Of a DNA stretch of 32,000 nucleotides, positions 5,145-32,000 are shown piece after piece; within the stretch, counting starts at the first letter, position 1, and each line of letters begins with the position of its first letter. This stretch comes from Roseiflexus castenholzii DSM 13941. Lineage in GTDB: Bacteria; Chloroflexota; Chloroflexia; Chloroflexales; Roseiflexaceae. Location: contig NC_009767.1 in the NCBI RefSeq assembly GCF_000017805.1, forward strand, positions 5,444,368 through 5,476,367, given 5' to 3'. A program made the translations under genes and the position numbers. The notes beneath the pieces are model-generated. The model had not been told where the DNA came from. It ran no database searches and saw nothing but the letters and a program-made list of their open reading frames with translations.

Positions 5145-6265
5145 CGCGGAACCACGAGCGCCTCGCCGCTGTCGAGAAAGAGGAACACTGTATCGTTCGA
5201 CGGACGGGATAGTATAAATCCCCGGACAAATTGCCGATACCCGCCTGTTTCGCCCTGCTCCGGTTCAACGGCCCAACCCAAACGTGACCGCACTTCCGCA
5301 TTATGCACCCATACATAGCCAAAGCCGCGTTCCGGCGCATACCTCCCGGCGGGAGGCATTTCGTCGAACCGTATCGGTGTTCCTTCTTGCCATTCATCGG
5401 CAAACATCTGCCAGGTGAAACGCTGGGGGTCGCTCGAATCAGCAGTAAGAACAAAGATTTCGGGCAGGATCGGCGCATCGCCCCATCGCCGCACCCAGAG
5501 CATGATGCCGCGCTCGAAACGCTGAACAGCGAGCGGAACCGGACGCATTTTCAGTTGCACCGGTCCCAACGGGTTGACCAGTTCACGCGACGAGGCAATA
5601 GGGCATCCGAGCAACCGCCGATAGGCGTAAGCAATCGGTTCATACATCGGCTCAAGTAGCACACAATTGTCGATGCGCATAACGTCCGCGCCCAATCGCC
5701 CCAGAAGCACTTCATAAGGCGTGCCGGCAAGTTCTGGATGGTACTCCATCCGCCGGCGCTCGAAGTATTGCACCTGATAGACCTTCCCCTCGATTTCTTC
5801 GTTCATGCGCTCAGTAATCGGGTAGCCGAACCGCTCCAGACCGCCGCGCACACGCCAGTAGATCAGAAATGGTTCGCACACCTGATGACCGGTAACGGCA
5901 AAGTAGGCGCATCCCGGATCTGCCTGCGCCACGGTCGGAAACGTCTGCCAGGGGCGGCCCTGCAACTCCAGATACCGCGCTCCAAGACGTCCAGCGGTCA
6001 CGTGCCCGTCCGCCTGGATTTCCAGACGGTCGCGCTCGAACCACTGCACGGTCAGCATCCGATCTTCAGCCGTCTGGATCGACTGATTACTGATTGGAAA
6101 GCCAAAGACTCTGAGACCGCCGTTTCGTTCCCAGTAGATCAGAATTGGTCCAGAGATGCAGTAGCCGGTTTCGCGGAAGCATCGCTCGCGACCGACAGCG
6201 ACGCCGGTCTGCGGGATCAGGACGGCGCTCAGGCAAAAAATAAGAAACAAATCGAGCCATTTCAT
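5135..6265 (-). CDS. Secreted hypothetical protein with an internally repeated YW..GGL..FG.PI motif
   Basis: Signal-peptide-like N-terminus MKWLDLFLIFCLSAVLIPQTGVA, with AGGAGG 9 nt upstream of ATG 6265. Repeated motif: ILIYWERNGGLRVFGFPIS / FLIYWRVRGGLERFGYPIT. The track start 6301 adds 12 unlikely residues. Confidence 0.8.
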   Translation of the reverse strand: MKWLDLFLIFCLSAVLIPQTGVAVGRERCFRETGYCISGPILIYWERNGGLRVFGFPISNQSIQTAEDRMLTVQWFERDRLEIQADGHVTAGRLGARYLELQGRPWQTFPTVAQADPGCAYFAVTGHQVCEPFLIYWRVRGGLERFGYPITERMNEEIEGKVYQVQYFERRRMEYHPELAGTPYEVLLGRLGADVMRIDNCVLLEPMYEPIAYAYRRLLGCPIASSRELVNPLGPVQLKMRPVPLAVQRFERGIMLWVRRWGDAPILPEIFVLTADSSDPQRFTWQMFADEWQEGTPIRFDEMPPAGRYAPERGFGYVWVHNAEVRSRLGWAVEPEQGETGGYRQFVRGFILSRPSNDTVFLFLDSGEALVVPRRN

Positions 6266-6428
6266 ACGCACACTCCTCCTGATGCCGGAGCAGCGGAACA
6301 AGAAAGCGCCAGGAAGATCACGCGGAACGACAGTGATAGAAACGCTGCACTATCTCTGGATTCTAACTCCGAACCAGATAGCGTATGGTACAGAAAGACG
6401 AACATTTCTGTGCTATACTATTAACAGT

Positions 6429-6442
6429 ACTGACCAGTCAGT
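6429..6442. promoter_or_regulatory. Candidate TetR operator (inverted repeat ACTGAC-CA-GTCAGT)
   Basis: Perfect 6+6 palindrome about 20 nt upstream of the TetR start, in the divergent intergenic region. Confidence 0.3.
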
Positions 6443-6461
6443 CGATCTCAGAGACAGGCGC

Positions 6462-7091
6462 ATGATTCACTCTGCCGACAAATGTTCCGATCAGAAGAGC
6501 ACCCGCGAACGGATTCTCGAAGCGGCGCTGGACATTTTTTCGTCGAAAGGGTACCACGACGCGCGCCTGGATGATATTGTCGAAGTGGCGCATATCTCGA
6601 AAGGGTCGATCTACTTCTACTTTCCAAACAAGGAGCGCCTCTTTCTGGCGCTCGTCGATCAATTCGCCGACCTGATCGAGCGACGCGCCACCGAAGCCAT
6701 TGAGCGCCAGCCGCGCGCCGGGATCGACCGGGTGCGCGCGGCGATCATGGCGGTGATCGAGACGTTCGGCAAGTATCGCCGTCCCGCCAAAATCCTGCTG
6801 GTGCAGGCGGTTGGGTTGGGGGCGCCTTTCGAGAAAAAGCGCCTGGAAGTCACTGATCGCTTTGCGGCGTTGATTAAGCGCCATCTCGACGAAGCAATCA
6901 CCGTGGGCGAAATCCAGCCGATCGACACGGCGGTGGTGGCGCATGCCTGGATGGGGGCAATCTACAACCTGGTCATCCGTTGGGTGATGACCGGCGATCC
7001 GCCCGCGGAGCGTATTCCGCCCACGCTCGTACCGTTACTGCTGCGCAGCGTTAATTATCCGGTGGAAGAGAAACAGGGCAACGCCGTATAA
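6462..7091 (+). CDS. TetR/AcrR-family transcriptional regulator
   Basis: The N-terminal HTH RERILEAALDIFSSKGYHDARLDDIVEVAHISKGSIYFYFPNKERLF is a textbook TetR_N signature. In-frame ATG 6462 gives a typical ~209-aa protein. Confidence 0.9.
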   Translation: MIHSADKCSDQKSTRERILEAALDIFSSKGYHDARLDDIVEVAHISKGSIYFYFPNKERLFLALVDQFADLIERRATEAIERQPRAGIDRVRAAIMAVIETFGKYRRPAKILLVQAVGLGAPFEKKRLEVTDRFAALIKRHLDEAITVGEIQPIDTAVVAHAWMGAIYNLVIRWVMTGDPPAERIPPTLVPLLLRSVNYPVEEKQGNAV

Positions 7092-7097
7092 GGACAG

Positions 7098-9135
7098 AGG
7101 TGAGAGGCAAGAGGCGAGCGGCGCGCGGCGCGAGGTGTGAGGCGCGAGGCGCGCGGCGCGAGGGGCCCGACCATGGCGTAGCGCGAGATTTATCTCGCAT
7201 TTGTGGCGCGCGGCGCGAGGGGCCCGACCATGGCGTAGCGCGAGATTTATCTCGCATTTGTGGCGAGGCGCGCGGCGCGCGGCGCGAGGTGCGAGGCGCG
7301 AGGGGCGCGGCGCGAGGGGCCCGACCATGGCGTAGCGCGAGATGTATCTCGCATTTGTGGCGAGGCGCGAGGGGCCCGACCATGGCGTAGCGCGAGATTT
7401 ATCTCGCATTGGTGGCGCGGCGCGAGGGACCCGACCATGGCGTAGCGCGAGATTTATCTCGCAACGAGGCGCGAGGCGCGCGGCGCGCGGCGCGAGGGAC
7501 CCGACCATGGCGTAGCGCGAGATTTATCTCGCATTGGTGGCGCGCGGCGCGAGGGGCGCGGCGCGAGGGGAGAGGCGCCCGACAATGGCGTAGCGCGAGA
7601 TTTATCTCGCATTGGTGGCGCGAGGCGCGAGGGGCCCGACAAGGGCGTAGCGCGAGATGTATCTCGCATTTGTGGCGAGGCGCGCGGCGCGAGGCGCGAG
7701 GCGCGAGGGACCCGACCATGGCGTAGCGCGAGATTTATCTCGCATTGGTGGCGCGCGGCGCGAGGGGCGCGGCGCGAGGGGCCCGACCATGGCGTAGCGC
7801 GAGATTTATCTCGCATTTGTGGCGAGGCGCGCGGCGCGAGGCGCGAGGGGCCCGACCATGGCGTAGCGCGAGATGTATCTCGCATTTGTGGCGAGGCGCG
7901 CGGCGCGCGGCGCGAGGGACCCGACCATGGCGTAGCGCGAGATTTATCTCGCATTGGTGGCGCGCGGCGCGAGGGGCCCGACCATGGCGTAGCGCGAGAT
8001 GTATCTCGCATTGGTGGCGCGGCGCGAGGGGCCCGACCATGGCGTAGCGCGAGATGTATCTCGCAACGAGGCGCGAGGCGCGAGGCGCGCGGCGCGAGGT
8101 GCGAGGCGCGAGGCGCGAGGCGTGAGGTGCGAGGCGCGAGGCGCGCGGCGCGAGGGGCCCGACCATGGCGTAGCGCGAGATGTATCTCGCAACGAGGCGC
8201 GAGGCGCGAGGCGCGCGGCGCGAGGGGCCCGACAAGGGCGTAGCGCGAGATGTATCTCGCAACGAGGCGCGAGGCGCGAGGCGCGCGGCGCGAGGGACCC
8301 GACCATGGCGTAGCGCGAGATTTATCTCGCATTGGTGGCGCGAGGCGCGAGGGGCCCGACCATGGCGTAGCGCGAGATTTATCTCGCATTTGTGGCGCGG
8401 CGCGCGGCGCGAGGCGCGCGGCGCGAGGGGAGAGGCGCCCGACAATGGCGTAGCGCGAGATTTATCTCGCATTGGTGGCGCGAGGCGCGAGGGGCCCGAC
8501 CATGGCGTAGCGCGAGATTTATCTCGCATTTGTGGCGCGGCGCGCGGCGCGAGGCGCGAGGCGCGAGGGGAGAGGCGCCCGACAATGGCGTAGCGCGAGA
8601 TTTATCTCGCATTTGTGGCGCGGCGCGCGGCGCGAGGCGCGAGGCGCGAGGTGCGAGGCGCGCGGCGCGAGGTGCGAGGCGCGCGGCGCGAGGCGTGAGG
8701 CGCGAGGCGAGGGGCGCGCGGCGCGCGGCGCGAGGGGAGAGGCGCCCGACAATGGCGTAGCGCGAGATTTATCTCGCATTTGTGGCGCGAGGCGCGAGGG
8801 GCCCGACCATGGCGTAGCGCGAGATTTATCTCGCAACGAGGCGCGCGGCGCGCGGCGCGCGGCGCGAGGGGCCCGACCATGGCGTAGCGCGAGATTGATC
8901 TCGCAACGAGGCGCGAGGCGCGAGGGACCCGACCATGGCGTAGCGCGAGATTGATCTCGCAACGAGGCGCGAGGCGCGAGGCGCGAGGCGCGAGGCGCGA
9001 GGCGCGAGGTGCGAGGCGCGAGGCGCGAGGCGCGCGGCGCGAGGCGCGAGGCGTGAGGTGCGAGGCGCGAGGCGCGAGGCGCGCGGCGCGAGGGGAGAGG
9101 CGAATGCGATGCCCTGAGCCTGCGAAGGGTTGAAC
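7098..9135 (+). repeat. ~2 kb non-coding hyper-repeat: 25 direct REP-like hairpin units separated by octamer (GAGGCGCG/GCGGCGCG) runs
   Basis: Unit: GAGGG(G/A)CCCGAC(C/A)A(T/A/G)GGCGTAGCGCGAGAT-NN-ATCTCGCA plus (TTTGTGGCG | TTGGTGGCG | ACGAGGCG). I counted 25 occurrences of GTAGCGCGAGAT..ATCTCGC, all on the + strand, at irregular spacing of roughly 53-165 bp. The fillers are low-complexity octamer repeats. All six frames stay open only because the repeats contain few stop codons. Confidence 0.95.
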
Positions 9136-9203
9136 GTATCATCCACTGTGATCCCTCACCAGCGTACATTGGCTATTGTACGAATGATCGCGCATTAGCA
9201 TTA

Positions 9204-9245
9204 GTTCTCAATTCTTAGTTCTCAGTTCTCAGTTCTCAGTTCTCA
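9204..9245 (+). repeat. Heptamer tandem repeat (GTTCTCA)x6 abutting the menF start codon
   Basis: gttctca attctta gttctca gttctca gttctca gttctca, followed directly by ATG 9246. No GGAGG-type SD is visible. Confidence 0.9.
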
Positions 9246-10706
9246 ATGACCAAACCCTTCCAACAACACTATGGTCGCCTGATCAGCCTGAGCATGCCGT
9301 GCCCTGGCGTGTCTCCCGCCGATCTGTTGCGCCATGCGCGCGGGCAGCCGCGATCATTCTGGGAGAGCGCCCGCGATGGGGTGGCGTTCGCCGGGATGGG
9401 GATCGCGGTCGAACTGATGGCGTGGGGCGCCAATCGTTTTGTCGAAATCGAGCAGCAGGCGCGCGCGCTGTTCGAGAACGCCGTCATGCTCGATGAGCGT
9501 GAGCCGCTGGCGGCGCCACGTCTCTTTGGCGGCTTTGCGTTCCACAACGATTTCGTGCCCGATCTGGCATGGGCTGATTTCCCGCCAGCACATTTTGTGC
9601 TGCCACACTACCAACTGGTGCGCGTTCGCGATTCGTTCTGGTTGACGCTGAACGTCCACGCGCCACCTGGCGAGGACCCGCGCGCGCTAGCGCCCGACTT
9701 GCGCGAGGCGCTGCTGGCGCAGGTCGATGCGCTTCAGAGCGAGCCGCCGCCACTGCCGCCGCGTTCGTCGGCGCGCCTTGCATATCCCATGCCGTTCGAG
9801 CAGTGGGCGCGCAGTGTGGAACGGATTGTCCGGCAGATCAACGTCGGTGAATTGAAGAAGGTCGTGCTGGCGCGGATTGCCGAGGCATCGTTCGACGCGC
9901 CGGTGGATGTCGATAGCGCCCTGGCGTGTCTGGCACAGCGCTACCCCGACACGTATCGCTTTCTCTTTGAGCCGCGTCCGGGGCGCGCATTCTTCGGCGC
10001 AACGCCGGAATTGCTGGCGCAGGTGAACGGCGACCGGGTGACGACAATGGCGCTGGCAGGCAGCATCCGGCGTGGCGCAACACCCGATGAAGATGAGCGT
10101 CTTGCTTTGGCGCTGCTCGATAGCGCAAAGGATCGCCACGAGCATCAGATTGTGGTCGATGAGGTGCGCAATCGTCTGGCGTCGCTGACCAGGCGCCTGG
10201 ATGTGGGAGCAACTGATGTGATGCGGTTGAGCAATATTCAGCACCTGCACACGCCAATCAGTGGCGTACTGCGCGAGCCACGCGGCATTCTGCCGATCAT
10301 TGCGACGCTCCACCCAACGCCTGCGCTCGGCGGTGAGCCGCGCGCGGCGGCGATGCGCCTGATCGCCGAACTGGAACCGGCGCCGCGTGGCTGGTATGCT
10401 GCGCCCGTCGGCTGGATCGACCGGCGCCTGGATGGGCAGTTCGGGGTTGCCATTCGCTCGGCAGTGGTACAGGCGACCCGCGCCTGGTTGTACGCCGGCG
10501 CCGGTATCGTTGCCGCAAGCGATCCGCAACGCGAGTGGGACGAAACGAACCTTAAGTTCCGTCCGATGCTCGAGGGGTTGGGGCACACGGATCGCCACGG
10601 GTTGGGGCACCTGGTAGGGACACGGATCGCCACGGATACGACGGATCGCCACGGGTTGGGGCACACGGATCGCCACGGATACGACGGATCGCCACAGATT
10701 AAGTAA
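9246..10706 (+). CDS. menF: Isochorismate synthase (menaquinone-specific), with a repeat-encoded C-terminal tail
   Basis: Chorismate-binding blocks: LAGSIRRGATPDEDERLALALLDSAKDRHEHQIVV, LHPTPALGGEPR, RGWYAAPVGW, AIRSAV, AGAGIVAASDPQREWDETNLKF. Clustered with menD/B/E. The last ~41 codons (GHTDRHGLGH...) are read from the ACGGAT repeat element. Confidence 0.88.
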   Translation: MTKPFQQHYGRLISLSMPCPGVSPADLLRHARGQPRSFWESARDGVAFAGMGIAVELMAWGANRFVEIEQQARALFENAVMLDEREPLAAPRLFGGFAFHNDFVPDLAWADFPPAHFVLPHYQLVRVRDSFWLTLNVHAPPGEDPRALAPDLREALLAQVDALQSEPPPLPPRSSARLAYPMPFEQWARSVERIVRQINVGELKKVVLARIAEASFDAPVDVDSALACLAQRYPDTYRFLFEPRPGRAFFGATPELLAQVNGDRVTTMALAGSIRRGATPDEDERLALALLDSAKDRHEHQIVVDEVRNRLASLTRRLDVGATDVMRLSNIQHLHTPISGVLREPRGILPIIATLHPTPALGGEPRAAAMRLIAELEPAPRGWYAAPVGWIDRRLDGQFGVAIRSAVVQATRAWLYAGAGIVAASDPQREWDETNLKFRPMLEGLGHTDRHGLGHLVGTRIATDTTDRHGLGHTDRHGYDGSPQIK

Positions 10707-11010
10707 CTCAATAATCCGTGGCCATCCGTACCATCCGTCTCTATCCGTGTCCTATTCTATTCAGCACACGGATCGCCACGGGTTGGGGCACCTGGTAGGG
10801 ACACAGATCGCCACGGATACGACGGATCGCCACGGGTTAATAACTTAATCATCCGTGGACATCCGTACCATCCGCGTCCATCCGTGTCCTATGCGCAACA
10901 ACCCGTGGCCATCCGTACCATCCGCGTCCTATGCTATCCAACACCCTGGCCGGCACGAGTTGGGAAGGACACGGATCGCCATAGATTGTGACCGATGCAC
11001 GTGGATAGGA
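10576..11010. repeat. ACGGAT-rich composite inverted-repeat elements (about 2 full copies plus fragments)
   Basis: Arms ACGGATCGCCACGG(ATACG)ACGGATCGCCAC face CCGTGGCCATCCGTACCATCCGT across AT-rich loops (ATTAAGTAACTCAATAAT; TTAATAACTTAATCAT). GGGTTGGGGCACCTGGTAGGGACAC is duplicated at ~10596 and ~10780. Confidence 0.8.
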
Positions 11011-11019
11011 CTTGCAGTC

Positions 11020-11068
11020 GTTCCCGGTTCTCAGTTCTCAGTTCTCGGTTCTCAGTTCCTGGTTCTCG
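11020..11068 (+). repeat. Heptamer tandem repeat (GTTCTCA-like x7) abutting the menD start codon
   Basis: gttcccg gttctca gttctca gttctcg gttctca gttcctg gttctcg, then tcc and ATG 11072. Confidence 0.9.
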
Positions 11069-11071
11069 TCC

Positions 11072-12814
11072 ATGCCCAATCGCAACATCCTGTACGCAAC
11101 GACACTGGTTGATGAACTCGCCCGCGCCGGGTTGCGCCATGTTTGCCTGGCGCCAGGCTCGCGCAATACGCCGCTGGTGCTGGCATTCGCCCGGCACCCT
11201 GCGATCCGGGTCTTTTCGCACCTGGACGAGCGCAGCGCGGCGTTCTTTGCGCTCGGCCTTGCGCTGGCGACCGATACGCCTGCCGCCGTGGTCTGCACCT
11301 CCGGTTCGGCAGCGGCGAATTTCTTCCCGGCGATTGTCGAGGCGCATCAGGCAGGTGTGCCACTCCTGGCGCTGACAGCGGATCGCCCGCATGAATTGCG
11401 CGACAGCGGCGCCAACCAGACGATTGATCAGGTGAAGATGTTTGGCAGTTTTGCGCGCTGGAGCGTTGATGTGGCGTTGCCGGAGGCGATGCCGCCTCCA
11501 GTTGCGCTACGCAACCTGCGGACGCTGGCAGCGCGCGCGATGGCGATTGCTGGCGGCGAGCCACGCGGCGTCGTGCATCTGAACCTGCCGTTCCGTCCGC
11601 CGCTGGAGCCAACCCCAATGCCAGGCGATCTGACCGAGCCTCCGGCGGCGGCACAGCCGCGTGACGATGGAGCGCCATACACATGCTTCCTGCGGTCTGC
11701 ACCCCCGGCGCCGCCGGAAGCGGTTATCGAACCGATCGCTGCCGTTCTGGAACAGCACGAACGCGGTCTGATCGTCTGCGGTCCGCGTTGCCCTGGCGGG
11801 GCATTTGGCGCCCTGGTGAGCGAACTGTCGCAGCGCACCGGCTACCCGGCGCTGGTTGACGGCGTGTCGGGGGTGCGCTTCGGCTATCCCGGCGTGATCG
11901 GCGGGTATGAGACCTTCCTCTTCGGCGAGCATGCCTTCCCGCCGCCTGAAGTCGTGCTGCGGTTTGGCGCGGTCCTCACCTCGAAATGGCTCAATCAGTA
12001 CCTCGACACGGCGGCATCGCCGGTTGTCATCCATGTGCGCGCCAGTGGCGTATGGGCAGATGATAGCCATCGCGTGAGCCATTTCGTCGTGGCTGACGAA
12101 GCCGCCTTCATTCGCGCGCTGATCCCGCGCCTGACCGAACGTCAGAGCGCCTGGAGGCAGCGTTTCGTCGAAGCGGAAGCGCGAGTGTGGGCAGCCGTTG
12201 AAGCCGGGATCGCCGATGAGCCGTACTTTGATGGCGGCGCAGTGTATGACGTGATCGACCTGTTGCCCGAAGGTGCATCGCTTTTCGTTGGCAACAGTCT
12301 GCCGGTGCGCCATCTTGATCAGTTTGGGAAGCCGGGAGTGCGACATATTTGCGCATTTGCAAACCGTGGCGCATCTGGGATTGACGGGAATATCTCGACG
12401 GCGCTTGGCATCGGCGCAGGACGACCAGACGCGCCGCTGGCGGCGATTGTTGGCGACATTACGTTCTACCACGATATGAACGGTCTGCTGGCAGTGCGGC
12501 GCTGCGGCGTTCCGGCGACGATTGTGCTGCTCAATAACGACGGTGGCGGCATTTTTCATCGTCTGCCGATCAATCGGTTTGAGCCGGAATTCACCGACTA
12601 TTTCGTGACGCCGCACGGACTGGACTTTGCACACGCGGCGAAGATGTACGGTCTGGAGTATGTTCCGGTAAAGGATCGCACAGCGTTCCGTAGCGCCTTC
12701 CGTGCCAGCATCGACGCGCGCGCCGCAACACTCATCGAACTCCGCACGGACGCGCGCACCGATCTGGTGCGGAGAAACGCCCTGATCCAGGCAGCCAGGG
12801 CGACAGGCGCCTGA
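11072..12814 (+). CDS. menD: 2-succinyl-5-enolpyruvyl-6-hydroxy-3-cyclohexene-1-carboxylate (SEPHCHC) synthase
   Basis: N-terminus MPNRNILYATTLVDELARAGLRHVCLAPGSRNTPL is typical MenD. ThDP-binding block GDITFYHDMNGLL...LLNNDGGGIF. The track start 11012 only reads through the heptamer tract. Confidence 0.92.
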   Translation: MPNRNILYATTLVDELARAGLRHVCLAPGSRNTPLVLAFARHPAIRVFSHLDERSAAFFALGLALATDTPAAVVCTSGSAAANFFPAIVEAHQAGVPLLALTADRPHELRDSGANQTIDQVKMFGSFARWSVDVALPEAMPPPVALRNLRTLAARAMAIAGGEPRGVVHLNLPFRPPLEPTPMPGDLTEPPAAAQPRDDGAPYTCFLRSAPPAPPEAVIEPIAAVLEQHERGLIVCGPRCPGGAFGALVSELSQRTGYPALVDGVSGVRFGYPGVIGGYETFLFGEHAFPPPEVVLRFGAVLTSKWLNQYLDTAASPVVIHVRASGVWADDSHRVSHFVVADEAAFIRALIPRLTERQSAWRQRFVEAEARVWAAVEAGIADEPYFDGGAVYDVIDLLPEGASLFVGNSLPVRHLDQFGKPGVRHICAFANRGASGIDGNISTALGIGAGRPDAPLAAIVGDITFYHDMNGLLAVRRCGVPATIVLLNNDGGGIFHRLPINRFEPEFTDYFVTPHGLDFAHAAKMYGLEYVPVKDRTAFRSAFRASIDARAATLIELRTDARTDLVRRNALIQAARATGA

Positions 12815-18332: not shown

Positions 18333-18598
18333 TGGCGCGAGACATTATCTCCGTAGGGGGGGTATCTCGTGTCGTAGCGCGCCATTCATGTCGCGTTTAG
18401 GGCGACATAAATGGCGCAATACGGTCGCGGTACGGTCGCAGTATCGGCGTAGCGCGCCATTCATGTCGCGTTTAGGGCGACATAAATGGCGCAATACGGT
18501 CGCGGTACGGTCGCAGTATCGGCGTAGCGCGCCATTCATGTCGCGTTTAGGGCGACATAAATGGCGCAATACGGTCGCGGTACAATTTCAATCGTAGG
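18333..18598 (+). repeat. REP-like array upstream of the RAYT gene (one degenerate unit plus 3 x 75-bp tandem units)
   Basis: GTAG at 18374, 18449 and 18524 (period 75). Each unit, GTAGCGCGCCATTCATGTCGC-GTTTAGG-GCGACATAAATGGCGC, folds as a 16-bp stem (1 mismatch) with a 7-nt loop, followed by AATACGGTCGCGGTACGGTCGCAGTATCGGC. Confidence 0.9.
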
Positions 18599-19245: not shown

Positions 19246-19251
19246 ATCTAA

Positions 19252-19765
19252 AAGTAGCGCGAGATTCTCGCCCTGAGCCTGCCGAAGGGTATCTCGCGTT
19301 TAGGCGACATCAATCCCCATTCGGGGACAACGTGTCGCAGTACGGCGTAGCGCGAGATTCATCTCGCGGTTTTAGGACGACATAAATGTCGCAGTACAGG
19401 CGGTGGCGCGAGATTCTCGCCCTGAGCCTGCCAAAGGGTATCTCGCGTTTAGGGCGACATAAATGTCGCAGTACGGCGTAGCGCGAGATTTATCTCGCGG
19501 TTTTAGGACGACATAAATGTCGCAGTACAGGCGGTGGCGCGAGATTCTCGCCCTGAGCCTGCCAAAGGGTATCTCGCGTTTAGGGCGACATAAATGTCGC
19601 AGTACGGCGTAGCGCGAGATTTATCTCGCGTTTAGGGCGACATAAATGTCGCAGTACGGTCGTACCGCGAGATTCTCGCCCTGTACCGCGACATTCATGT
19701 CGCAACACGGCGTGGCGCGAGATTTATCTCGCGGTTTCAGGCGATATCAATCCCAATTCTCAATC
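19252..19765 (+). repeat. REP-like array downstream of the RAYT gene (mixed hairpin classes)
   Basis: Alternating modules: GTAGCGCGAGAT-(TT/TC)-ATCTCGCG; the long form GCGAGATTCTCGCCCTGAGCCTGCC(A/G)AAGGGTATCTCGCG; and GCGACAT-AA-ATGTCGC. About 10 hairpins, with GTAG on the + strand. Confidence 0.9.
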
Positions 19766-24029: not shown

Positions 24030-25380
24030 GAGCTTTCGTACCGCTTTCGTACCGCTTTCGTACCGCGACATTTATGTCGCGCCCCATATTGGAGTGCTCT
24101 CGTACCGCGACATTTATGTCGCACCCCATATTGGAGTGCTCTCGTACCGCGACATTTATGTCGCACCCCATATTGGGGTGCTCTCGTACCGCGACATTTA
24201 TGTCGCACCCCATACCTGACGGGTATACACAAATGCGAGATACCCTTTGGCAGGCTCAGGGCAAGAATCTCGCGCTACGCCATTGTCGGATTAACTTGTC
24301 GCACCCCATACCTGGCGGGTATGCTTTCGTACCGCGACATTTATGTCGCACCTCATATTGGGAGAATGCGAGATACCCTTCGGCAGGCTCAGGGCAAGAA
24401 TCTCGCACCACGCCATTGTCGGATTAATTTGTCGCGCCCCATATTGGAGTGCTTTCGTACCACACTTTCGTACCGCGACATTTATGTCGCACTCCATATT
24501 GGAGTGCTTTCGTACCACACTTTCGTACCGCGACATTTATGTCGCGCCCCATATTGGAGTGCTTTCGTACCACACTTTCGTACCGCGACATTTATGTCGC
24601 ACCCCATACCTGACGGGTACACACAAATGCGAGATACCCTTCGGCAGGCTCAGGGCAAGAATCTCGCGCTACGCCATTGTCGGATTAATTTGTCAATCTG
24701 CAACATGTCGCGCCTCATATTTTGGATGCCTGCGCCGAAGGCGAGATAAATCTCGCGCTACGCCATGCGCTACGCCATTGTCGGATTAATTTGTCAATCT
24801 GCAACATGTCGCGCCTCATATTTTGGATGCCTGCGCCGAAGGCGAGATAAATCTCGCGCTACGCCATGCGCTACGCCATTGTCGGATTAATTTGTCAATC
24901 TGCAATATGTCGCGCCCCATATTGGGGTGCTTTCACACTTTCGTACCGCGACATTTATGTCGCGCCCCATATTGGGCGAATGCGAGACACCCTTCGGCAG
25001 GCTCAGGGCAAGAATCTCGCGCTACGCCATTGTCGGATTAATTTGTCAATCTGCAACATGTCGCGCCTCATATTTTGGATGCCTGCGCCGAAGGCGAGAT
25101 AAATCTCGCGCTACGCCATGCGCTACGCCATTGTCGGATTAATTTGTCAATCTGCAACATGTCGCGCCTCATATTTTGGATGCCTGCGCCGAAGGCGAGA
25201 TAAATCTCGCGCTACGCCATGCGCTACGCCATTGTCGGATTAATTTGTCAATCTGCAATATGTCGCGCCCCATATTGGAGTGCTTTCACACTTTCGTACC
25301 GCGACATTTATGTCGCGCCCCATATTGGGCGAATGCGAGACACCCTTCGGCAGGCTCAGGGCGAGAATCTCGCGGTACGA
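24030..25380 (-). repeat. 1.35 kb REP-like array, inverted relative to the other arrays
   Basis: Contains the reverse complements of the modules seen at 7098-9135 and 19252-19765. CGCGACATTTATGTCGC about 10x; GCGAGATAAATCTCGCGCTACGCC 4x; GCGAGA(T/C)ACCCTT.GGCAGGCTCAGGGC.AGAATCTCGC 5x. Higher-order ~101-bp units (AATCTGCAACATGTCGCGCCTCATATTTTGGATGCCTGCGCCGAAGGCGAGATAAATCTCGCGCTACGCCATGCGCTACGCCATTGTCGGATTAATTTGTC) occur 4x. Confidence 0.93.
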
Positions 25381-26971: not shown

Positions 26972-27592
26972 TCAACCGCACTCCATTTCGTGCGCATCCA
27001 AATCCGGCAGCACCTCACTCCCATTGGGAACAGCGCAGCGCAGGGCGAGCACGACCTGTGAAGTTGGCAGACGCACGATGCAGTAGATCGTTCCCTGGCA
27101 AACGAACTGCATATATTCGATAAACTTCGCAAATCCCAATCTGCCCGGTTGAAAGTCGGGAATGGCATACATGACAGCTTCTTTAATGACCGAAAGTGTT
27201 ATTCCTTTCTGAACCAAATCGACTGACGTTGTTGTATTCTGTGCGTACCAATCGAGGATCTCTCTAGTTTTGGCGACAATGTTCTCTGGTGTAGGCACGG
27301 TTACTCTCGCCACCTGTTCGGCGAGGCGAATATTGCGCGGGTCGGTGACCCCAAGTTGATCGGGCACATGCGCCGGCTGAACCTTCTCTTCCGGGTCGGT
27401 AATCCAAACGAATTCGTCACACACCGCTTGAAACGTCTTGTTGACTGCCGAACGGTAAGCGCAACCGATGACCGTCTTGCCATATTCGTGCAGCTTTTTG
27501 GCCAGAGCGGCAAATCCGCCATCACCGGATACAATCACAAACACGTCGAGACCGGGACGGATATACGCGCCAGATACCGCCCATTCACACAC
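26972..27592 (-). CDS. NYN-domain remnant (C-terminal half only) fused to an OST-HTH/LOTUS domain; possible pseudogene or frameshifted fusion
   Basis: LDVFVIVSGDGGFAALAKKLHEYGKTVIGCAYRSAVNKTFQAVCDEFVWI matches the distal part of NYN (PF01936-type) domains. ITLSVIKEAVMYAIPDFQPGRLGFAKFIEYMQF looks like OST-HTH. The frame is closed upstream by TGA TAA TGA at 27623-27631, so the catalytic N-terminal half of NYN is absent. Confidence 0.6.
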   Translation of the reverse strand: MCEWAVSGAYIRPGLDVFVIVSGDGGFAALAKKLHEYGKTVIGCAYRSAVNKTFQAVCDEFVWITDPEEKVQPAHVPDQLGVTDPRNIRLAEQVARVTVPTPENIVAKTREILDWYAQNTTTSVDLVQKGITLSVIKEAVMYAIPDFQPGRLGFAKFIEYMQFVCQGTIYCIVRLPTSQVVLALRCAVPNGSEVLPDLDAHEMECG

Positions 27593-28194
27593 CAGAAGTT
27601 TTGCAGGGAAGCCCAGGAGAAGTCATTATCAGGAAAGTTTGGTCGCCAATGTGAATTGCGCACATAGGCTTCTACATCCTCTTTTTTACACCATTTTGGC
27701 CGCTTCTTAATCTTCACAAGCCCAAAGTCTTTGTGATGAGGCTGATTCTGCCTATTCTGCTGATCCGACGGCTTAAACACCGTCTTGCCGCCTATCGCTC
27801 CATACTCGGCAATCAGGCGCAGGGTGGCGTCGAGCAGGCACCACTCCTCGTCCCGAATGGGTCGCAGGGGGATGAAGCGCAAGATGAAGGTGTGATTTGC
27901 CTTGATCTGGTTCTGAATGACCTGACCATTATCGTCCAGAATCATGAGCCGGAACTTGCGCGCCCAGCCGGTGCAGCCGAAGAGTTCGCAGACCACGCAG
28001 TGCCGACCGTCCTTGTCCGGGCAGCGCACATCCGACGTGGGATCGCACGCCTGGCCGCCGAGACCGCGCACCAGCACCTCAAACCACCAGCGCAGCGATC
28101 CCATGATGCCGGTGGGAATGAGGCGGTCGGGTTTCCCTGCTGCGTCTCCGGTCCAGATGTCGGTGTGGGCTTCGAGCTTCCATTTTTTCCCCAT
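27535..28194 (-). CDS. Orphan RAMP-superfamily protein (Cmr1/Cas7-like)
   Basis: WKLEAHTDIWTGDAAGKPDRLIPTGIMGSLRWWFEVLVRGLGG resembles the Cmr1 N-terminal signature (compare P. furiosus SIKGAMRWWFRAL). Cys cluster CDP..CPDKDGRHCVVCELFGCTGWARKF. Gly-rich loop YGAIGGKT. No other cas genes or CRISPR array in the window. Confidence 0.62.
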   Translation of the reverse strand: MGKKWKLEAHTDIWTGDAAGKPDRLIPTGIMGSLRWWFEVLVRGLGGQACDPTSDVRCPDKDGRHCVVCELFGCTGWARKFRLMILDDNGQVIQNQIKANHTFILRFIPLRPIRDEEWCLLDATLRLIAEYGAIGGKTVFKPSDQQNRQNQPHHKDFGLVKIKKRPKWCKKEDVEAYVRNSHWRPNFPDNDFSWASLQNFWCVNGRYLARISVPVSTCL

Positions 28195-30366: not shown

Positions 30367-30402
30367 AGGAAGATCCTTTCGCTCTGTCCTGACGATACTC
30401 CT

Positions 30403-30806
30403 CACGCGGCCTATACCCTGAGCGTTCTTGGCCTCCGCTGCGCCTGTGCGTAAGGGATGCAGCCCTCCCTCACGCGGCCTATACCCTGAGCGTTCTTGGC
30501 CTCCGCTGCGCCTGTGCGTAAGGGATGCAGCCCTCCCTCACGCGGCCTATACCCTGAGCGTTCTTGGCCTCCGCTGCGCCTGTGTGTAAGGGATGCAGCC
30601 CTCCCTCACGCGGCCTATACCCTGAGCGTTCTTGGCCTCCGCTGCGCCTGTGCGTAAGGGATGCAGCCCTCCCTCACGCGGCCTATACCCTGAGCGTTCT
30701 TGGCCTCCGCTGCGCCTGTGCGTAAGGGATGCAGCCCTCCCTCACGCGGCCTATACCCTGAGCGTTCTTGGCCTCCTCTGCGCCTTTGCGTAAGGGATGA
30801 CACTGC
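30403..30806 (-). repeat. Six tandem 68-bp repeats (5 near-identical plus 1 degenerate) immediately upstream of the GGCT gene
   Basis: CACGCGGCC starts at 30403, 30471, 30539, 30607, 30675 and 30743 (period exactly 68). One C>T change in unit 3. Unit 6, distal from the gene, is degenerate. Across each unit junction GCGTAAGGGA-TGCAGCCC-TCCCTCACGC can form a 10-bp stem with 1 mismatch. Since 68 is not a multiple of 3, no consistent reading frame exists. Confidence 0.95.
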
Positions 30807-30983: not shown

Positions 30984-31658
30984 TCACTCCTGTTGTGTAC
31001 ATAGTGATTCTAATCGGGTTAACCAATCGTGAAAATGCGGACATTTGTCTCGAATGGTTTCAATCCCGATTTTTTGGACTAGTAACGGACCGTGTAAACG
31101 TTTTTGATAGCCGGGAAAATATTGCCGGATGCGGGCAGCAGGATGGGTGGTGTCGCCGTCGTTGATTTCTTCTGGTGGCAAACCGTTAATATCTCTCTGG
31201 AGATCGGCAAGTTTGGCTTTATACTGAGGCAAGACATCGGCAAGATGTTCCGGTTCGGTCAGAACGAGAGCTTCGAACTCGTGCAAGACAAGAAAGGGCA
31301 AAAATCGCTGGCTTCCGATGTCCATGGCAAATGCATCTTGCAGAGCACGTACCCTTTCGGAGAGTGTACCGGTTGGCAATGTCGATATTCCCGGGAAGTC
31401 ATCTGGTAATCCGTAGTAATCAATCATTGTAGTCACTAATGCCACGTTAGGTGTATTTAGGAGATTACGAAGATCTTTTTTCACCTGCCCGTAGGAAACA
31501 ATGCCTCCTTTAAACGTCTGACCGGATTTGGTTCGTTTGGTCCGGGCTAGCGTAGGAATTACGAAGATGGAGCAGGTTGTGAATAGATGTGGCGCTAACA
31601 CGTCGCGCACGAAAGTCTCCTCGGTTTGCCCTTCCACATAAACAAGCACCTGCTTCAT
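30984..31658 (-). CDS. DUF4276-family protein (TOPRIM-like partner of an ABC-type ATPase)
   Basis: MKQVLVYVEGQTEETFVRDVLAPHL, GGIVSYGQVKKDL, TTMIDYYGLPDDFPG, LVLHEFEALVL and KCPHFHDWL match my recollection of the DUF4276 consensus. ATGA overlap with the upstream ATPase gene. Confidence 0.8.
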   Translation of the reverse strand: MKQVLVYVEGQTEETFVRDVLAPHLFTTCSIFVIPTLARTKRTKSGQTFKGGIVSYGQVKKDLRNLLNTPNVALVTTMIDYYGLPDDFPGISTLPTGTLSERVRALQDAFAMDIGSQRFLPFLVLHEFEALVLTEPEHLADVLPQYKAKLADLQRDINGLPPEEINDGDTTHPAARIRQYFPGYQKRLHGPLLVQKIGIETIRDKCPHFHDWLTRLESLCTQQE

Positions 31659-32000
31659 CGCGCCGGTCGTCCTCTCAGTAGATTCTTTTCCCACAGATCG
31701 CCGAGTCCGTAATCTTCCAGCCAAGATGCCATCTGCTCTTTTTCCAGTCGGCTGAATAGTGTTTCCCCTTGGACACGATCTACGACCAAAATGTCGTCCG
31801 GTTCGAACTGATTAACGAGGGTAACTGACTGCGTGGCTAAGATAATCTGCGTATGTTCCGCCGCACTGCGCACCATGTCGGCCAAGATAGCGATAGCATA
31901 AGGATGTAACCCTAGTTCCGGCTCATCGAGCACGATGGTAGCCGGAAACCGTTCGGGTGGCTGCAAAAAGAGCGTTGCCAGACAGATAAAACGCAGCGTG
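31655..32000 (-). CDS. AAA/ABC-type ATPase (AAA_21-like), C-terminal part only (5' end outside window)
   Basis: Walker B / D-loop region TIVLDEPELGLHP and ILATQS. The frame stays open to the window edge (..TLRFICLATLFLQPPERF). Confidence 0.8.
   Translation of the reverse strand, partial: TLRFICLATLFLQPPERFPATIVLDEPELGLHPYAIAILADMVRSAAEHTQIILATQSVTLVNQFEPDDILVVDRVQGETLFSRLEKEQMASWLEDYGLGDLWEKNLLRGRPAR

Follow-up and report, generated by a model that had tools for sequence, protein, structure and literature searches.

A probable hypervariable array of head-to-tail REP singlets within a heptanucleotide microsatellite between the TetR and menF genes of Roseiflexus castenholzii

We investigated a repetitive region of about 2 kb in the genome of Roseiflexus castenholzii DSM 13941, located within a stretch of 32,000 nucleotides (contig NC_009767.1 of RefSeq assembly GCF_000017805.1, positions 5,444,368 to 5,476,367 of the forward strand; hereafter the window), where it separates a TetR-family regulator gene from menF, the first gene of the men cluster on that side. 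The region is probably a hypervariable head-to-tail array of GTAG-tagged repetitive extragenic palindrome (REP) singlets, set inside a (GAGGCGC)n-type heptanucleotide microsatellite that fills the TetR–menF spacer. The palindromes belong to the family of a REP-associated tyrosine transposase (RAYT, or TnpAREP) gene in the same window, and would have been amplified together with the microsatellite by slippage and unequal recombination. The features concerned are listed in Table 1.

A 24-nt core, GCGTAGCGCGAGAT-NN-ATCTCGCA, which reads GCGTAGC-GCGAGAT-NN-ATCTCGC-A, was found 25 times between positions 7176 and 8961, and 0 times in 100 dinucleotide-preserving shuffles. An earlier note on this DNA, made from the letters alone, had counted 25 direct copies; the count stands for the core, every copy of which is on the plus strand, and the full 34-nt string is present in only 19 of the 25. 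Each unit has the form CCCGAC(C/A)A(T/G)GGC-GTAG-C-GCGAGAT-NN-ATCTCGC-A, followed by a tail and a variable heptamer run of 21–133 nt. The 5′ extension takes the variant form CCCGACAATGG in 4 copies and CCCGACAAGGG in 2, and the tails fall into three classes, TTTGTGG, TTGGTGG, and ACGAGG (tail strings ATTTGTGG, ATTGGTGG, and AACGAGGC). The earlier observation that differences within the palindrome are confined to the two loop bases was borne out, the loops being TT in 15 copies, GT in 8, and TG in 2, with all 7 + 7 stem bases constant; a search for degenerate hairpins hidden in the array spacers found none. The filler had been described as octamers. Tandem Repeats Finder instead gave a period of 7 throughout (GAGGCGC, GCGGCGC), with up to 20 copies, the commonest heptamers being CGAGGCG (42), CGCGGCG (37), and CGAGGGG (22). 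The filler is thus made of head-to-tail 7-nt repeats with 7-nt steps in copy number, as in a heptanucleotide microsatellite: spacer lengths inside one tail class differ by multiples of 7, and the REP-to-REP periods of 55–167 nt are all 0, 1, or 6 modulo 7 and not multiples of 3. An exact repeat of 114 nt recurs at an offset of 140 nt (8305 and 8445), and the plus strand of the array is rich in G (918 G, 562 C).

The borders of the array are shared with loci from other assemblies, which are denoted here by L numbers and described below. The 209-aa TetR product (start at 6462, stop codon at 7089–7091) has identical copies in public contigs. The start of the left heptamer run, GGACAGAGGTGAGAGGC..., is common to the window, L136, L142, and L135, and the right run is near-identical in L142 save for the heptamer count. 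The right-end remnant GAATGCGATGCCCTGAGCCTGCGAAGGGTTGAAC, whose resemblance is to the long-loop REP variant GCGAGATTCTTGCCCTGAGCCTGCCGAAGGGTATCTCGC, is present in the window, L136, and L142, and also in the REP-less L134 and L135.

Table 1. Positions in the window of the array, the RAYT gene, and associated features
Feature	Position	Strand	Remarks
TetR-family regulator gene, 209 aa	6462..7091	+	directly 5′ of the array; Pfam TetR_N 1.4e-15
Left heptamer run, 74 nt	7092..7165	+	begins directly past the TetR stop codon
Array of 25 head-to-tail REP units	7166..8961	+	each unit a hairpin, a tail, and a heptamer run
Right heptamer run, ~140 nt	8962..9101	+	variants GAGGCGC, GCGGCGC, GAGGTGC
Conserved right-end remnant GAATGCGATGCCCTGAGCCTGCGAAGGGTTGAAC	9102..9135	+	resembles inner part of the long-loop REP variant
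menF (isochorismate synthase)	9246..10706	+	first men-cluster gene 3′ of the array; Pfam Chorismate_bind 1e-79
REPtron left flank: GTAG-tagged long-hairpin repeats, 75 nt × 2.8	18373..18583	+	just 5′ of the RAYT gene
RAYT / TnpAREP gene (putative cognate), 212 aa	18607..19245	+	NCBIfam NF047646, Pfam Y1_Tnp, PDB 4er8
REPtron right flank	19250..19733	+	same-strand REP-A GGCGTAGC-GCGAGATTTATCTCGC, long-loop variants, inverted REP-B GCGACATAAATGTCGC
Four dispersed REP-A copies	24740..25217	-	share the array 5′ extension CCGACAATGGCGTAGC

The array hairpin is a REP, and it is linked to a RAYT. GTAGC precedes the stem in all 25 array copies, and in 32 of the 33 copies in the whole window (the remaining one has GTGGC). 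With its stem of 7 bp and loop of 2 nt (GCGAGAT-NN-ATCTCGC), the hairpin lies within the range of REP stems (6–13 bp with a small loop), carries the conserved GT[AG]G at the 5′ foot of the stem, and is extragenic, all four REP clusters of the window being intergenic. We identified the hairpin as a REP because in these respects it conforms to GTAG REPs as published, which have stems of 6–13 bp, loops of 2–3 nt that are often TY, and members in Chloroflexi (PMC3733652). We refer to this palindrome as REP-A. Its 33 copies form four clusters over the 32 kb, and further copies are present at two other loci of a relative. The 8 copies outside the array comprise 4 just 3′ of the RAYT open reading frame (ORF) and 4 on the minus strand at 24.7–25.2 kb, and the 5′ extension that the latter share with the array occurs too in loci L002 and L003 of Chloroflexota MAG-07r (MAG, metagenome-assembled genome). 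A search of genome contigs for the REP returned 3 exact matches only, all in one other Chloroflexota MAG. A second hairpin family, REP-B (GCGACAT-NN(N)-ATGTCGC), is one compensated stem position away from REP-A and has the tag GTAC in 14 of 14 copies. Inverted REP-B paired with REP-A was found only beside the RAYT gene.

Two known composite elements were considered for the array and rejected. The bacterial interspersed mosaic elements (BIMEs) of Escherichia coli are likewise REP clusters with short linkers, intergenic in operons, but their orientation alternates (Y/Z pairs), whereas 7092–9135 holds 25 REPs on the plus strand and 0 on the minus strand. A REPIN, in which two inverted REPs form one long hairpin, does not fit an array of singlets only.

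The divergent intergenic region between two response-regulator genes at 24032–25379 is also filled with repeats. It contains head-to-tail arrays of the second REP family, GTACC-GCGACATTTATGTCGC, with periods of 42 and 55 nt, runs of the 11-mer GCTTTCGTACC, and minus-strand REP-A copies inside 101-nt and 353-nt higher-order repeats.

Profile searches and local context suggest that the 212-aa gene is likely the cognate RAYT of the array REP. Its product scored 85.4 bits against the NCBIfam equivalog NF047646, 'REP-associated tyrosine transposase' (cut-off 80), and 25.5 bits against Pfam Y1_Tnp (PF01797; cut-off 23), and its sole sequence match in the PDB was E. coli TnpAREP (4er8, E = 2e-4). The Tyr of the motif AYILNNPV aligns with the catalytic Y115 of 4er8 and the Asn with the metal ligand N119, while H123 is replaced by Ala; the HUH motif is the HVH of IMPNHVHLL. 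About 50 more residues separate the first strand from the HUH region in this protein than in the NCBIfam model, which matches from residue 78. The neighboring genes encode a LuxR/MalT-type regulator and a GNAT protein, and there is no tnpB. A RAYT gene flanked by REPs is the layout termed 'REPtron' (PMC6006769), and RAYT genes flanked on both sides by their REP were found in the window, L132, and L133. On the left in the window, the 75-nt repeats (100% identity) hold a long GTAG-tagged hairpin, GCGCCATTCATGTCGC-GTTTAGG-GCGACATAAATGGCGC, with a DNA folding energy of -21.2 kcal/mol (z = -4.8). L132 (Roseiflexus sp. GCA_026003855) encodes an orthologue 97% identical, flanked by the array REP, and its 3′ flank (6932–8546) is a gene-free array of ~1.5 kb with 16 short and 8 long-loop REP-A copies and inverted REP-B, about three times as long as the corresponding flank of ~0.5 kb in the window. 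The orthologue in L133 is 89% identical and is again flanked by the array REP, among unrelated neighbor genes. Comparison of the array linker with the REP-A/REP-B linker beside the RAYT gene gave a weak similarity (p ~0.03–0.06) confined to the first 11 nt, on which we base no claim. A search for literature on Roseiflexus together with RAYT found none.

The prevalence of the array was examined at orthologous loci. The source lineage is a Roseiflexus-type Chloroflexota bacterium; its MenF shares 92% identity with the homologue in a Roseiflexaceae MAG and 90% with the one in Roseiflexus sp., and the gene order TetR–menF–menD–menB–menE is kept in relatives. At 79% identity to the window (L009), TetR and menF overlap and there is no REP; at 83% (L005 and L006), the two genes are 107 nt apart, again without REP; and at 87% (L004), the spacer is 216 nt long and contains degenerate heptamers such as GGTGCGAGGCGAGAGG and no REP. 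Arrays are present in L142 (JGI metagenome 3300038964), where flanks identical to 99.4% upstream and 98.7% downstream enclose a spacer of 2005 nt with 24 same-strand REPs, and in L136 (GCA_026003855; flanks 98.7% upstream and 96–97% downstream), where a spacer of 1493 nt holds 16 short and 3 long-loop REPs. The L142 array has its unit types and periods in quite a different order from the window, and the L136 array includes five identical 70-nt units and four GTCG tags. In L135 (ERZ3623746) and L134 (GCA_049700935), whose men block is 96.5% identical, the spacer of about 170–265 nt consists of heptamers only and ends in GAATGCGATGCCCTGAGCCTGCGAAGGGTTGAAC. A short-read contig, L143, agrees with the window at 100% identity until it breaks off at the first REP.

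The flanks are thus 97–99% identical in three assemblies, and yet the spacer contains 25, 24, and 19 units in unlike orders, with 0 in a fourth lineage. The copy-number polymorphism that the earlier note proposed to look for by strain comparison is therefore present among close relatives, and its suggestion of a recombination or slippage hotspot is supported by this comparison. Variant states (CCAT/CAAT/CAAG flanks, TT/GT loops, and the three tails) are common to the genomes and are recombined in different orders. Collectively, these comparisons confine the array to a narrow lineage and show it turning over far more quickly than the flanking DNA. The array next to the RAYT gene follows suit, with ~0.5 kb in the window against ~1.5 kb in L132.

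Metagenomes were also scanned for the REP. A first, stricter scan gave no matches, and a loose scan gave 120, mostly single and unrelated-looking, of which only one was informative. This match (L068, 2150–2660 of JAANMU010000337.1, a metagenome contig of another organism) is a 9-unit head-to-tail array with a period of 56 nt between two genes, in which GTAA/GTAG-tagged GCGAGATTCATCTCGC alternates with GCGAAATGAATTTCGC, the hairpin being nearly identical to the array REP. Head-to-tail arrays of ~55 nt therefore recur in this REP family.

Invariance of the stems was assessed in the 65 short hairpins of three arrays (window, L142, and L136), among which a check made independently of stem sequence found 0 degenerate copies. 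Variant cells numbered 0 of 910 in the stems, 61 of 715 in the 11-nt 5′ extension, 4 of 455 in GCGTAGC, 24 of 130 in the loop, and 110 of 520 in the 3′ tail. Counted by position, 0 of 14 stem positions were variable versus 16 of 28 others (hypergeometric p = 1.8e-4 over the 65 copies); in the window alone the contrast was weak (p = 0.10). Because the copies are related by descent, these statistics support, but do not prove, constraint on the hairpin or its homogenisation.

The internal structure of the array bears on how it grew. The flanks are the same in every unit, and the heptamer runs inside units vary by 7-nt steps; since every REP carries the same flanks, the units were copied together with them and not inserted independently. 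Blocks of several units have also been duplicated, as seen in the 114-nt repeat of the window and the five identical units of L136. Even without REPs, in the lineage with a frameshifted RAYT gene, the heptamers form a long run, and other heptamer runs (AGTTCTC, GTGACGA, and GATTTTT) occur in these genomes without any REP. Such REP-free expansion, together with the common unrelated runs, agrees with the excess of heptameric repeats reported in bacteria, which a cited hypothesis links to polymerase slippage (PMC4692102).

We propose that the TetR–menF spacer would first have carried a proto-microsatellite like the one seen in 87%-identical relatives, and that this would then have expanded. A REP copy with its 5′ extension CCGACAATGGC would have landed in the microsatellite, and REP-plus-flank units (minimum 55–57 nt) would have multiplied through replication slippage and unequal recombination between repeats. 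Heptamer runs inside the units may have kept gaining and losing 7-nt steps, with exchange between units shuffling the variants, and the stems may have stayed perfect through recognition of the hairpin by the RAYT, through selection as a structure, or through recent origin of the copies. The array itself would most likely be a passenger in the 3′ untranslated or intergenic transcript of TetR, without a required function. We infer that this passive amplification of a REP by slippage and unequal exchange would correspond to the 'second mechanism' of cluster formation, a non-transpositional one, put forward by Bertels and Rainey for tandem REP arrays (PMC3116915).

Several points weigh against this account. 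The invariance of the stems could stem from recent common descent of the copies and not from selection. The data do not separate host slippage and recombination from RAYT-catalysed amplification, and the occurrence of arrays with an intact RAYT, and of none in the lineage with a broken one, fits a role of the RAYT in seeding or maintenance at least. The REP-less alleles, which come from short-read MAG and metagenome assemblies, may have collapsed; no single assembly allows the order of 55–70-nt units in a 2-kb array to be verified; and the counts of REP copies cover the 32-kb window and the relative loci only.

One alternative, which we consider unlikely, is that the RAYT itself made the tandem copies: cleavage at a REP would be followed by extension of the 3′-OH by host polymerase, and a second cleavage with strand transfer would add units, the heptamers being carried along as linker. 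A rolling-circle-like model of BIME amplification has been published for E. coli TnpAREP (PMC3333891); an intact RAYT gene lies 9.5 kb from the array; the largest same-strand arrays adjoin RAYT genes; and the copies are all on one strand, as expected of a strand-specific enzyme acting on single-stranded DNA (PMC8266576). Lineages with an intact 212-aa RAYT have 19–25 REPs at TetR–menF and 1.3–2.2 REPs per kb locally, whereas in L134 (14156–14794) and L135 (14088–14726) the RAYT orthologue carries a T6-to-T5 deletion near codon 22, so that a 161-aa ORF is called, and this lineage has 0 REPs at TetR–menF and very few over 15 kb (0.2 per kb), 3 of its 4 tagged copies having imperfect stems. This correlation, however, comprises one broken-RAYT lineage and short-read assemblies, heptamer-step variation and heptamer expansion occur also without REPs or a working RAYT, and ordinary unequal recombination is expected to give tandem arrays too. 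Moreover, movement of REPs by a RAYT in vivo is undemonstrated in any organism, and PMC3333891 states that its mechanism and frequency are unknown. As to the earlier suggestion of run-away amplification by a RAYT, the link to a RAYT has firmer support than could be known from the letters alone, since the window contains a RAYT gene flanked by the GTAG-tagged hairpin, while tandem copying by the enzyme itself is only a possibility. It is doubtful, too, that the Roseiflexus population displays natural RAYT-dependent local REP amplification, with arrays growing only where the RAYT is intact and decaying or being lost after the frameshift; if this were true, the TetR–menF array would be a natural in vivo read-out of TnpAREP activity, which is undemonstrated for any RAYT. 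A selected role of the array in cis is less probable still, and we regard it as very unlikely. The array could stabilise the 3′ end of the TetR mRNA as a barrier, attenuate read-through into menF, or bind a nucleoid protein or gyrase like the BIMEs of E. coli; its hairpins all point the same way as TetR and menF and would fall in the 3′ untranslated region of TetR, their stems are invariant, REPs of other bacteria are credited with such roles, and a sense transcript of the G-rich plus strand may be a poor substrate for Rho. Relatives nevertheless do without the array, their TetR and menF genes being adjacent or overlapping, which makes a required regulatory function unlikely, also under the earlier idea of a structured untranslated region or insulator, and near-identical genomes differ freely in copy number and order. 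As RNA or single-stranded DNA, the unit folds into a small REP hairpin with a 6-bp stem and a 4-nt loop, which corrects the 7-bp stems described earlier, and the energies of single and double units were indistinguishable from those of shuffled sequence (z ~ -1). There was no match to Rfam at the gathering score anywhere in the window, and a promoter and terminator scan of 6200–11200 gave 0 sites inside the array and 0 plus-strand promoter-like sites over its whole length, and so none for menF.

Two further explanations concern the reality of the array and its coding potential. Inflation of a short repeat through mis-assembly is highly improbable. Arrays of 55–70-nt units are hard to assemble, the unit order of the window is completely unlike that of a contig whose flanks are 99% identical, and several short-read contigs break at the array edge. 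However, a REP array of 1.35–2.0 kb is present at the same site and with the same junctions in three independent assemblies (window, L142, and L136), L143 equals the left junction of the window exactly up to the first REP, and many variants tell the units apart. The array is thus real, and the refutation named in the earlier note, collapse as an assembly artefact, fails because independent assemblies carry the array. A repeat-protein gene on the minus strand is scarcely credible. The window has minus-strand ORFs of 216–311 aa, and in public records the orthologous arrays bear minus-strand gene calls for hypothetical proteins of 350 aa (L136, 5010–6062) and 519 aa (L142, 10973–12532). The reverse-complement heptamers contain no A, and stop codons therefore cannot arise in them in any frame. 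The three longest minus-strand ORFs have no Pfam match, no unit period is divisible by 3, indels occur in steps of 7 nt, different assemblies give different ORF lengths and frames, and relatives lack a gene at the site. The earlier conclusion that no credible gene lies between the TetR stop codon and menF was thus upheld, also with respect to a conserved coding gene in homologous strains, and the public 350- and 519-aa gene calls are likely artefacts of sequence composition. In addition, an intrinsic terminator cluster (GC-rich hairpins with T tracts) was rejected as an identity for the array, the consensus scan giving no terminator-like site in 7092–9135. ARAGORN found no tRNA or tmRNA genes, and the GC-skew profile gave no usable signal of replication direction.

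An array of co-amplified REP singlets in a microsatellite has close counterparts among known systems. The GTAG REP/RAYT systems of E. coli, Pseudomonas, Stenotrophomonas, and Thermomicrobium roseum (GTAG-23) likewise combine a short extragenic palindrome, whose stem has GTAG at its 5′ foot and whose loop is 2 nt long, with a Y1 HUH transposase-like gene between copies of its REP, and keep their stems while loops and flanks vary. The small REPs of S. maltophilia and Marinomonas (PMC8266576) are perfect palindromes like the array hairpin. Unlike known REPtrons, the present one has a Roseiflexus-type Chloroflexota host, a new REP sequence, and an array of singlets only, on one strand. The closest architecture described is that of direct REPs repeated with their flanks: P. 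fluorescens SBW25 has direct tandem arrays (GI/GIII) of up to 12 REPs (PMC3116915), and clusters of 'singletons reiterated in tandem with flanking DNA' have been described (PMC3733652). The view that a direct array is unusual was correct in that head-to-tail REP pairs are rare in most genomes (PMC3116915; PMC3733652), although such direct arrays had already been described. The present array differs from those of SBW25 in having 25 copies of one REP type, twice the largest SBW25 array, a linker that is a length-variable heptanucleotide microsatellite, and a documented rapid turnover in near-identical genomes. As to the filler, the heptanucleotide simple sequence repeats of Xanthomonas (GGGAATC), Nostoc (GGGGAYT), and Calothrix (PMC4692102) are also intergenic tandem 7-mers with one G-rich strand and a copy number that varies in close relatives; here, by contrast, a REP interrupts the microsatellite regularly, and the G tracts, as read from the sequence, are too short and sparse for the G-quadruplex motif of those repeats. 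CRISPR arrays are superficially alike, with direct, partly palindromic repeats of ~30 nt and spacers between them, but no cas genes adjoin the array. This candidate was rejected, the spacers being low-complexity heptamer runs of 21–133 nt that are neither unique nor uniform, and the flanking genes TetR and menF. The GTAG-REP/RAYT kind is therefore already known in itself, and what is new here is the host lineage, the 25-copy size, the microsatellite linker, and the documented turnover.

REPs and domesticated transposases are widespread, and how REP clusters grow is an unsettled question. The locus provides a compact natural series in genomes 95–99% identical, from a REP-free microsatellite to arrays of three sizes and with both intact and frameshifted RAYT genes, and its main value is as a natural system in which to ask whether RAYTs drive REP amplification. 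Metagenomes of hot-spring Chloroflexota are plentiful, and read-level analysis could measure the turnover of the array and test the role of the RAYT. The array also traps assemblers and gene callers, as contigs break at it and hypothetical proteins are annotated on it, and it could be used as a high-resolution strain marker.

Other repeats were observed around the men genes. Runs of the heptamers AGTTCTC/GTTCTCA occupy 9203–9245, ending exactly at the menF ATG, and 11027–11058 in the start region of menD; they lack an obvious purine-rich ribosome-binding site, and their copy number differs in relatives. A block of 24-nt and 19-nt tandem repeats at the menF–menD junction (10575–10699) is entered by the menF ORF, and the menF product has 486 aa in the window and L136 versus 449 aa in L142, L134, and L004. 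Further downstream, 30400–30799 contains 5.9 copies of a 68-nt unit with 98% identity; this repeat is not CRISPR-like, because its whole period is conserved. Minus-strand ORFs in 26972–28191 and 30984–31721 match the Pfam NYN domain, the RAMP superfamily, and DUF4276, and could be what is left of a defence or CRISPR-associated locus.

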